Positions 46,975 to 56,752 of a stretch of 64,000 bases of DNA are shown in pieces. Each line of letters opens with the position of its first letter. Position 1 is the stretch's first letter. Source of the stretch: Escherichia coli (GTDB taxonomy: Bacteria; Pseudomonadota; Gammaproteobacteria; Enterobacterales; Enterobacteriaceae). The position numbers and the translations under genes were made by a program. The DNA is taken from NCBI RefSeq assembly GCF_048403405.1, contig NZ_CP183129.1; one strand, 5' to 3'. The notes under the pieces were generated by a model. The model made no database searches, had not been told where the DNA came from, and saw only the letters and a program-made list of their open reading frames with translations.

Positions 46975-47738
46975 GGTGATGCCTCCAATTAGTTGAATTA
47001 AGGATATAATACTCGCTTTTAAGGTTGTTTCATGGTCACAGTTAACCTTCATTGTCCCCGTTGCCAGTCCGTTCAGGTTTACCGTCACGGGCAGAACCCC
47101 AAAAGACATGATCGATTCCGCGGCCGTGACTGTCACCGGGTATTTCAACTCAGTTACTGTTACGAGCCCCGTAAACCGGGAGTTAAAGACCAAATCGCTG
47201 AAATGGCTTTCAACGGTGCCGGGGTTCGCTATACTGCCCGTACGCTGAAAATCGGCATTAATACAGTCATCCGAACTTTAAAAAACTCTCGCCACGAAGA
47301 ATAACGTCATCCCCGGTCGCTCATGCTGATGTGGCACTCATCTGCGAACGTAGTCAGCAATGGAGCTTTGTCGGCAGTAAAGCGCGACAGCACTGGCTCT
47401 GGTACGTGTACAACACGAAAACTGGTGGTGTTCTGGCCTACACTTTTGGCCCCCGGACTGATGAAACCTGTCGTGAACTGCTGGCGCTGCTTACCCTTTT
47501 ACCATCGGCATGTTGACCACTGACGAATGGGGTAGTTACGCTAGAGAGTTACCAAAGGAGAAGCATCTGACTGGTAAGATTTTTACTCAGCACATTGAGC
47601 GTAACAATCTGACCCTGAGAACCCGAATCAAACGTCTGGCCCGCAGAACCATCTGTTTCTCGCGTTCTGTAGAACTTCATGAAAAAGTCATCGGTGCTTT
47701 TATCGAAAATATATGTTCTACTAATTGGAGTCATCACC
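46975..47738 (+). mobile_element. divergent IS1-family insertion sequence (about 764 bp)
   Basis: Terminal inverted repeats GGTGATGCCTCCAATTAG (46975) and CTAATTGGAGTCATCACC (ending 47738) resemble IS1 ends; the insA-like ORF (47032..47304) has the CPRC…C..C zinc ribbon; insB-like frames 47331..47516 and 47510..47824 are in different frames and one reads through the right IR. Confidence 0.75.
47032..47304 (+). CDS. insA: IS1-family InsA-like protein
   Basis: 90-aa ORF MVTVNLHCPRCQSVQVYRHGQNPKRHDRFRGRDCHRVFQ…NGAGVRYTARTLKIGINTVIRTLKN, clearly related to but divergent from K-12 InsA. Confidence 0.75.
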   Translation: MVTVNLHCPRCQSVQVYRHGQNPKRHDRFRGRDCHRVFQLSYCYEPRKPGVKDQIAEMAFNGAGVRYTARTLKIGINTVIRTLKNSRHEE

Positions 47739-47793
47739 CTTCTGATGAGCTTTCCTTGGATGATTACCAGACTGAATACACAGCCAAAGATTT

Positions 47794-48117
47794 TTACCTC
47801 ATTCTGCTCTTTTTTCTCAAATGACATATATTATATTTTACATCATATTCATAGGTATATGACATTCCCCCGCCCCCCATTATGTCATTGTGGGTTGATG
47901 TTGGGCTTTCATAAAAAAATACATCTTTTTTTGAACTAGCATTAATTATATTTACTTTATATATTAAAATATTTTCTCCATCTGGAAATATTTTAGCCAC
48001 ACAATATAAAGCAGCTAAATCCGAATTACTTAAAAATATATTGTCATCACTCATAACTCCAGCCATTAAATGACTGGAGACTAAAGCAAGGAAATAACAA
48101 CATTGTATTGCCTTCAT
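47794..48117 (-). CDS. putative immunity protein for the orphan Rhs C-terminal toxin
   Basis: Small AT-rich ORF starting one nucleotide after the orphan toxin stop (TAA-A-ATG, with GGGAG upstream); predicted start MKAIQCCYFLALVSSHLMAG is signal-peptide-like. Assigned by position only. Confidence 0.5.
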   Translation of the reverse strand: MKAIQCCYFLALVSSHLMAGVMSDDNIFLSNSDLAALYCVAKIFPDGENILIYKVNIINASSKKDVFFYESPTSTHNDIMGGGGMSYTYEYDVKYNICHLRKKSRMR

Positions 48118-55400: not shown

Positions 55401-56633
55401 CACCACCCGCTTCAGCCCGCCTTCGCCCTGCGTGTGCAGCACTTCACGGCGGTCCAGACTGTCGGTGATGGTGATGCGGTCTTTCTCATACTGATACGTG
55501 TAGCTTAAGCCTGCCGGGTTTAGCTGCTCTGTCACCCGCCCGTCGCTGTCGTAACGGTAACGGATTTCCGGCCGGCCCGCGCGGCGGTGCGCCACCATCC
55601 GGCCCCGGTATTTATCATCGTAAGTAAAGCTGCGCACCTGTTTGCCACTGCGGTCATACACCGCCGCCAGTTCGCCGCGTGGCGTCCAGCCATAGCGCAC
55701 CAGCGGCGCGGCAGGTAAATTCTCCGGGTATTCAGGGTCGTGTGTCAGCCACACGGCAGACAGACGGATACCGTTGTCCCGGCCATATTCCGTGTAGTCC
55801 GGCAGGGTATCAGGAAAAGCGGACGGTTCCGTCCCGCCGGAAGTGGCCTTCTGCCGGGCCTCTTCTGCCCGCTGCGCCTGCGTGGTCAGTACCAGCCGGA
55901 AGTGACGCCCGGCACCATCCGTCACGCCGGTGATTTCGCCGCTGAATTCACCGCCAGCCTCACGGTGAAACGTCTGTGTGCGCCCGAAGCGGTCCACCAG
56001 CCCGGTCAGTACCCGGTACGGCGGCAGCGGCGCGGGCAGCACCTCATCCGCCTCCGGCACCTGCTCACACCAGCCGAGTACCCACCACGGCCCCTGCGGA
56101 CTGTTTGTCGCCAGATAACGATGCGGACTCAGGCGGAGTTCTTCCGGCAGCGCCTGCCAGAGTGCGGCCAGCCGGTGACCTTCATCCAGTTTCAGGACAC
56201 CGCCACGCACCAGCCAGAGTGATTCGCTGCGGCTGTAACCGTCCTCACCGGGAAACAGGTGCTCAAAATACAGGCTCCTGCCGCCGTTATCACTGAGTAT
56301 CAGTGTGTTATCGCGCAGCTGTAGGCGGATATCCGCAGGCATTTTCCAGCCGGGGCCGAGGCTCCCCACCGGCGCGGGCGTTTTTGTCCGGTAACTGCTG
56401 TAGGTGCGGGAGAGGATGAACGGCAGCGGGCCGGGCAGGGCAAGGTCGGTTTCGCCGGGAAGGACCTTCGCACCGAGCAGCGGATTGACCGGATGGCCGG
56501 ACGTCACCCCGCCGGGGCACACCGAACAGGCCACGCCGGTGGGGGCACCAATACGTACCCCGGCAGAACCCTGAACAATGCTACCGCCATACTGCGTCAT
56601 GTCGCCCTGACGCGCCGCCGGTTTTCCGCTCAT
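52404..56633 (-). CDS. rhs: full-length Rhs polymorphic toxin (RhsA/B/C-like core) with an uncharacterised C-terminal toxin domain
   Basis: 1409-aa ORF with the conserved N-terminus [44 protein letters not shown]-repeat core and core-end motif …[45 protein letters not shown], then a 162-aa AT-rich tip (about 52407..52892). Confidence 0.95.
52940..53940. repeat. roughly 1 kb rhs core-end direct repeat (main-gene copy)
   Basis: Near-identical to 48612..49612. Confidence 0.9.
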
Positions 56634-56752
56634 CGTAAAATCCTTTTGAAATAAATAAGAACCAGAAGCCTAGCGCCAGTCAACAACAGGAAATGATAAT
56701 GAGTTAACACCCCGGAATTTTTCAGAATTTATAAAAGGCAAATTACAGGCAC

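Follow-up and report, generated by a model that had tools for sequence, protein, structure and literature searches.

The stretch analysed here, hereafter the window, comprises 64,000 nucleotides of Escherichia coli DNA (NCBI RefSeq assembly GCF_048403405.1, contig NZ_CP183129.1), and our subject is the Rhs element that it carries between yiiX and rpmE. The components of the element were checked against the listing of open reading frames (ORFs), the RefSeq annotation of an identical genome (Prokaryotic Genome Annotation Pipeline, PGAP) and scans with NCBIfam and Pfam profiles. All the parts that a preliminary description of this DNA had listed were recovered (Table 1), namely an IS1-like element, an orphan rhs toxin and immunity pair, a small membrane protein, an H-repeat, a degenerate remnant and a full-length rhs gene with its immunity gene. 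The alternation of GC-rich cores with AT-rich tips that the same description had reported was likewise evident, with a G+C content of 0.60-0.68 in the cores and 0.29-0.40 in the tips (0.32-0.40 in the main tip), and all rhs genes of the element lie on the minus strand. Its estimate of about 9.7 kb between yiiX and rpmE holds in essence; the start of the element, however, had been placed at 46975 and lies 86 bp further left.

Table 1 Features of the Rhs element and of the metL-metF interval, in window coordinates
Feature	Position	Strand	Remarks
Whole Rhs element	46889-56739	-	9,851 bp without K-12 counterpart at the site
Full-length rhs, 1,409 aa	52404-56633	-	NF041261 RHS_core, 2,609.9 bits (cut-off 2,000)
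Main toxin tip CT1, 162 aa, yibJ type	52404-52892	-	Predicted clan CD-like cysteine protease fold
Immunity-position gene I1, YibG-like Sel1/TPR protein	51925-52392	-	PGAP 'sel1 repeat family protein'
Degenerate orphan remnant, yibS/yibW-like	about 51366-51914	-	Decayed core end and truncated Tlde1/YkuD-like tip
H-repeat (ISAs1 family), 1,291 bp	50076-51366	-	Transposase frameshifted
rhsC-type toxin tip, last ~95 nt	49982-50076	-	Cut by H-repeat; PGAP partial hypothetical protein
ybfB, small membrane protein	49655-49981	-	PGAP annotation; 97% identical to K-12 ybfB
Orphan rhs fragment: ~1 kb of core 3' end (ybfO-like) and DUF4329 tip CT2	48119-49624	-	PGAP 'missing N-terminus'
dsORF-f3, immunity-position gene for CT2	47794-48117	-	PGAP name
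IS1H-like element, degenerate	46975-47738	+	Inverted repeats; split IS1 transposase ORFs
Direct repeat copy 1 (core 3' end, orphan)	48595-49609	-	Matches the same K-12 core segment as copy 2
Direct repeat copy 2 (core 3' end, main gene)	52918-53939	-	Matches the same K-12 core segment as copy 1
Bifunctional metallophosphatase/5'-nucleotidase	39250-40803	-	Between metL and metF
376-aa hypothetical protein	40936-42066	+	Overlaps metL 3' end; between metL and metF

The full-length gene has the layout of an Rhs toxin gene, in which a GC-rich core is followed by an AT-rich variable tip and then by the small ORF at 51925-52392. Its translation matched the RHS_core model NF041261 over residues 1-1247, above the curated cut-off, as well as the YD repeat (TIGR01643, E = 7e-36), Rhs_assc_core (TIGR03696, E = 8e-23) and DUF6531 (E = 3e-18) models, and contains the DPxGL cleavage motif (...DPIGLKGGW...VDPQGL). 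The core is 95-96% identical to K-12 rhsC and rhsA, and we take it to belong to the RhsA-B-C-F subfamily. The gene sits directly downstream of the rpmE terminator on the same strand, and a consensus scan of the 160-bp spacer between that terminator and the rhs start found no sigma-70-like promoter.

Comparison by BLAST with the empty site of K-12 showed that the element stands in place of 7 K-12 bases. Homology to K-12 stops at position 46888, the last base after the yiiX stop codon, and restarts at 56740, just before the rpmE terminator. In K-12, yiiX and rpmE lie 60 bp apart and the site is empty, so the preliminary description was correct that the two genes are neighbours there and that K-12 lacks this element at this position. 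The survey of site occupancy which it had proposed was carried out on 5,426 complete E. coli genomes. A 776-bp query with both flanks joined, for which a match in one piece was required, detected the empty site in 3,244 genomes, K-12, CFT073 and Nissle among them, while a 661-bp query comprising the rhs 5' end, the spacer and rpmE, again required to match in one piece, detected the rhs-rpmE junction in 2,172 (~40%), including O157:H7. Together the two queries explained 5,416 of the 5,425 genomes with a match. In O104:H4 the flank query matched as two separate places, indicating that the site is occupied there. Occupancy of the yiiX-rpmE site is therefore a long-known and common presence/absence polymorphism.

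The element lies between yiiX and rpmE/priA, which is the position of rhs locus 11, listed by Jackson et al. 2009 (Table 3) as flanked by yiiX/priA; the same authors proposed that loci 10 and 11 are duplications of locus 5, RhsC (PMC2935791). Collectively, these findings identify the element, with a probability that we put at about 0.88, as the known E. coli Rhs element of the yiiX-rpmE site (locus 11), a polymorphic-toxin locus that is present here in a rearranged form. Both the locus, which is common in E. coli, and this type of rearrangement have been described before, and we therefore regard the element as already known rather than new.

Several names are in use for this locus. One small ORF carries the PGAP name 'RHS element protein dsORF-f3', which we take to follow the Hill laboratory's RhsF nomenclature; to judge by the PGAP name, the element presumably corresponds to RhsF of ECOR-50 (Zhao & Hill 1995; Wang, Zhao & Hill 1998). 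In recent papers on enterohaemorrhagic E. coli (EHEC), 'RhsF' denotes z0705/ECs0605, which is a different locus. Most of the papers found under the name 'RhsF' concern that EHEC gene and, the names colliding, were set aside as irrelevant to the element at the rpmE site. The same EHEC work uses 'RhsB' for the gene next to rpmE (z5488), and many PGAP labels read 'rhsC'. In an EHEC survey, z5488, the copy that O157 has here, was discussed as an 'orphan' Rhs whose tip is of the DUF4329 type (PMC7216683).

Subsequently, we compared the arrangement in the window with that of other occupied genomes. In O157:H7 and strain M160133, locus 11 has a simple form, consisting of rhs with a DUF4329 tip, dsORF-f3 and an IS1 remnant, whereas the window carries a composite that equals the simple form plus 4,330 bp; removing 48596-52925 yields the simple form. 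The extra block is bounded by direct repeats of the core 3' end, which are about 1 kb long, 97.1% identical to each other and spaced 4,330 bp from start to start. Most of the composite arrangement was recovered in 148 complete genomes, in each of which a single place covers at least 80% of an 11.4-kb query; identity to the query was 98.9-100% among the 30 best listed. The composite is a rarer, rearranged form of the locus.

Apart from the H-repeat, the extra block falls into two pieces, each with a counterpart elsewhere in K-12. Positions 53373-51366 are co-linear with K-12 yibJ-yibG-yibS-yibW' of RhsA (2,008 bp, 97.5% identity), and positions 50076-48588 are co-linear with the K-12 rhsC tail, ybfB and ybfO core (region L005, 6182-7670; 97.2% identity). 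The RhsA-like and RhsC-like pieces meet at the H-repeat. The K-12 region downstream of RhsA (yibJ-yibG-yibS-yibW) thus contains the same CT1 and YibG pair as the window; in K-12, however, the yibJ tip is an orphan pseudogene, whereas in the window it forms the main toxin at the end of a full-length core, and the H-repeat of the window cuts the yibW-like tip while yibV is absent. In the K-12 RhsC element (rhsC-ybfB-ybfO-ybfC, with H-repeats), the rhsC tail, ybfB and the start of the ybfO core are contiguous, as they are in the window. The two differ in that the rhsC tip has shrunk to 95 nt in the window and in that the orphan core there carries the DUF4329 tip with dsORF-f3 in place of the ybfO tip with ybfC.

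This architecture suggests a model in which tips are exchanged at the conserved core 3' end, giving rise to a derived or alternative arrangement of the locus. In such an exchange, the DUF4329 tip and dsORF-f3, which form the main pair in O157:H7 and M160133, would have been demoted to a start-less orphan, while the yibJ-type tip and yibG would have been loaded onto the main gene and hence onto a deliverable protein. Between the main and the orphan pairs lie a decayed third tip, an H-repeat and a ybfB bereft of its toxin. Either the composite arose from the simple form by insertion, or the simple form arose from a composite-like ancestor by deletion between the repeats, and this direction can be approached through informative sites in the ~1-kb repeat. 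At these sites the simple-form core mostly resembled the main core of the window, with a mixed pattern near the 3' end; this result would fit an insertion as well as a deletion with a crossover close to the tip. The ybfB/ybfO boundaries are common to the element and RhsC, which agrees with the duplication proposed by Jackson et al. and keeps a deletion route plausible. Displacement of C-terminal tips and reloading from orphans have already been described for rhs and cdi loci (PMC2935791, PMC3150448). The literature already covers the site, the family to which the element belongs, its architecture of orphan modules and the model of tip displacement.

The orphan rhs fragment matched model positions 991-1261 of RHS_core together with Rhs_assc_core and has no proper start codon. 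Its tip, CT2, matched DUF4329 (E = 7e-16); a sequence search of CT2 against the PDB returned one chance-level match (E = 0.2). CT2 and dsORF-f3 occurred together in 2,164 genomes, compared with the 2,172 that carry the rhs-rpmE junction, which marks the pair as a module specific to locus 11; in O157:H7 and M160133 the CT2-type tip sits on the full-length gene. The ybfB product has three hydrophobic segments. In K-12, ybfB directly follows rhsC, and the copy in the window still has the final 95 nt of the rhsC tip in front of it (97% identity), so that it is most simply read as an orphan immunity gene. From this position, ybfB is the probable immunity gene of a lost rhsC-type tip. NCBIfam held no model for YibG, dsORF-f3 or YbfB.

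The degenerate remnant is co-linear with K-12 yibS-yibW as far as the edge of the H-repeat. It includes a further copy of the direct repeat (D1, 51746-51914) that is 74% identical to the reference copy and contains stop codons, and a 91-aa ORF with weak matches to Tlde1_dom (E = 0.011) and YkuD (E = 0.12). The decayed third tip (51325-51600, minus strand) retains an H-x17-SEGC motif and resembles a truncated L,D-transpeptidase-like toxin cut by the H-repeat; its K-12 counterpart is yibW, followed by yibV. The H-repeat itself is 95% identical to the K-12 ybfL H-repeat. Its transposase matched NF033564 in two separate ORFs (293 bits over model positions 1-233 and 103 bits over 241-314), so no intact ISAs1 transposase was found there, and PGAP labels it 'frameshifted'.

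At the yiiX end of the element, inverted repeats of 26 nt that are 88% complementary (46972-46997 and 47716-47741) delimit the IS1H-like element. The IS1 transposase models hit split ORFs, an interruption that goes beyond the normal frameshift, and the annotation records the gene as frameshifted; judged from these features, the element is a decayed copy. Its flanks (ccggtaaac and cttctgatg) show no target duplication. The remnant lies at an identical offset from yiiX in O157:H7, M160133 and the window (regions L008, 9014-9706, and L009, 9022-9714). The missing target duplication and the shared offset in three genomes indicate that it is old and fixed rather than a recent hop.

We then examined the tip carried by the full-length gene. 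CT1 and its partner are 97-98% identical to K-12 yibJ-yibG, and CT1 was contiguous with the immunity gene in 3,428 of the 5,426 complete genomes, where the two are mostly annotated as an Rhs fragment and yibG. Across public data the CT1 family comprises 562 cluster representatives at 50% identity. An alignment of 56 diverse members left H30 and C70 (residues counted from VDINLY...) as the sole invariant columns, and the structural model of CT1 displayed a caspase-like fold. A sequence search of CT1 against the PDB gave no match; the leads came from profile members and from comparing folds. The Peptidase_C80 profile did not match CT1, and among the 56 relatives it matched one at E<=0.001. On the basis of the modelled fold and the invariant pair, CT1 is probably a clan CD-like His/Cys cysteine protease, which would have protease activity.

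There are precedents for such a domain among toxins. Tce1 and Tce2 of P. aeruginosa are putative His/Cys proteases (PMC13323088), and in the EHEC survey the tip of EDL933 'rhsA', which has a Sel1-like partner there, was modelled on the TcdA entry 3HO6 (PMC7216683). Relative to the clan CD proteases considered (Tce1/Tce2, MARTX, the TcdA/TcdB cysteine protease domains and Peptidase C80), CT1 shows 13% sequence identity. It is fused to Rhs, whereas a clan CD counterpart is carried inside Hcp, and, unlike the Tce1/Tce2, MARTX and TcdA/TcdB domains, it is paired with an apparently exported Sel1 protein. Outside Rhs tips, the CT1 His/Cys domain also occurs four to five times over in giant proteins of 3,140-6,827 aa (P0025, P0028, P0029, P0031 and P0033). 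The Pfam copy used contains no model for this domain, and PGAP names some E. coli copies 'DUF8616 domain-containing protein'.

The partner of CT1, the YibG-like I1, gave only weak TPR_27 and Sel1 matches in Pfam. Judged by eye, the N-termini of YibG (MKACLLLFFYFSFIFQLHGA/D) and dsORF-f3 resemble Sec signal peptides; the immunity proteins, and hence the action of the toxins, would on this ground possibly be periplasmic. YibG thus appears to be exported, and the toxin may act in the periplasm. Taking these points further, we tentatively consider that the yibJ-type tips form an uncharacterised and widespread family of clan CD-like protease toxins, perhaps periplasmic in action and blocked by YibG, of which K-12 keeps a silent orphan that is loaded onto a deliverable Rhs in the window; this broader proposal is possible, although we would not favour it over its negation.

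How the protein leaves the cell could be addressed at the level of the genome. The window matched the GN02461 chromosome with 100% identity over 30297-64000 and 99.96% elsewhere. GN02461 carries a complete type VI secretion system (T6SS) cluster between tRNA-Asp/dnaQ and fadE, about 775 kb from the rhs locus, with tssA, B, C, E, F, G, H, J, K and M, icmH/DotU, tagH, two hcp genes and vgrG. Directly after vgrG lies an Rhs gene whose product is 66% identical to the locus-11 Rhs over the first 500 aa, including the N-terminal motif. In its N-terminal motif, shell and cleavage motif, the locus-11 Rhs is like T6SS PAAR-Rhs effectors such as this vgrG-linked Rhs of the aspV cluster; unlike them, it is not adjacent to a vgrG, hcp or chaperone gene. 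Because the N-terminus is common to both Rhs proteins, loading onto the same or a similar VgrG is the most economical inference, and delivery probably proceeds through this T6SS ~775 kb away. The preliminary description had left delivery open; that assessment stands for the window itself, but the identical genome supplies this candidate route.

In the mechanism that we envisage, the YD-repeat shell would enclose the C-terminal toxin, which would be freed by cleavage at the conserved DPxGL motif. The N-terminus of the Rhs protein would be mounted on the VgrG spike and delivered by the T6SS, while the small gene just downstream would guard the producer. The locus would thereby serve competition between bacteria. 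As a separate observation, the vgrG-linked Rhs gene in the GN02461 T6SS cluster is followed by a small ORF and then by an intact ISAs1-like ISEc1 (L006, 11718-18281), so that the association of H-repeat and Rhs recurs at that locus.

Several results nevertheless weigh against the reading of the element as a deliverable toxin locus in rearranged form. No vgrG, hcp, PAAR or Eag-type chaperone gene lies beside rhs and, as the preliminary description had noted, no T6SS gene is annotated in the 64-kb window. The PAAR_motif model gave a partial and non-significant match to the rhs N-terminus (E = 0.18, residues 2-20, model positions 51-69 of 70), a search for a co-PAAR or split-PAAR partner turned up nothing applicable, and the EHEC survey deemed it unclear which VgrG, if any, carries this Rhs clade in EHEC (PMC7216683). 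With regard to the toxin, no Pfam model matched CT1, and a Foldseek search against the PDB, the ranking of which agrees with a clan CD fold, returned weak E-values, the best being 0.02. A 19-residue hydropathy window did not flag the putative signal peptides of YibG or dsORF-f3. As for the rearrangement, the informative sites give no clear order of age for the composite and the simple form.

Some of the same evidence would suit an alternative in which the element is no longer a delivered weapon and instead serves as a store of immunity genes and as a set of internal toxin-antitoxin (TA)-like modules, expressed from promoters inside rhs independently of the T6SS. The rhs gene has no linkage to vgrG, three of the four tip modules are orphaned or decayed, and ybfB has been retained without its toxin. 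A report on Salmonella describes Rhs orphans that act as type II TA modules (PMC7043789), and in EHEC internal transcripts arise from a different rhs locus while the T6SS is repressed (PMC7618764). Against this stand the intact main ORF of 4.2 kb, with its full RHS_core score and its preserved cleavage motif, and the presence in the same genome of a complete T6SS with a vgrG-linked Rhs that has the same N-terminus. We consider the alternative unlikely; storage of immunity genes and delivery of a toxin are, moreover, compatible with each other, and the identification as a locus-11 polymorphic-toxin element is preferred.

A second alternative, close to the framing of the preliminary description, is that of a recent, strain-specific island of unusual composition acquired by horizontal transfer. 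The absence of the element from the yiiX-rpmE site of K-12 and the presence of insertion sequences and AT-rich segments would agree with such an origin. However, 40% of complete E. coli genomes, O157:H7 and O104:H4 among them, are occupied at this very junction, all of the modules have counterparts of 95-98% identity at other rhs loci of K-12, and several lineages keep the IS1 remnant in one and the same place. Neither an integrase nor a tRNA nor a target duplication was found. The view of the element as a noteworthy inserted island is not supported by these counts, and we judge a recent acquisition very improbable. A misjoin or collapse in assembly, to which two ~1-kb repeats of 97% identity set 4,330 bp apart could give rise because short-read assemblers can mishandle such a layout, is hardly credible at all, since 148 independent complete genomes share the arrangement at the coverage given above and, to the left and to the right of the H-repeat, the DNA enclosed by the repeats runs co-linear with K-12 sequence; the chimera that the preliminary description had named as a possible refutation was thus not borne out.

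Elsewhere in the window, two genes lie between metL and metF (Table 1) that are absent from K-12 and O157:H7 and present in strain M160133.

The value of the locus is modest and lies in its use as a worked example, in which a single 4,330-bp block orphans the usual main toxin and promotes a module that is a pseudogene in K-12. Its main tip points to a wider subject, as the CT1 family, which is large and shares an invariant pair of His and Cys, could be worth the attention of researchers working on polymorphic toxins.

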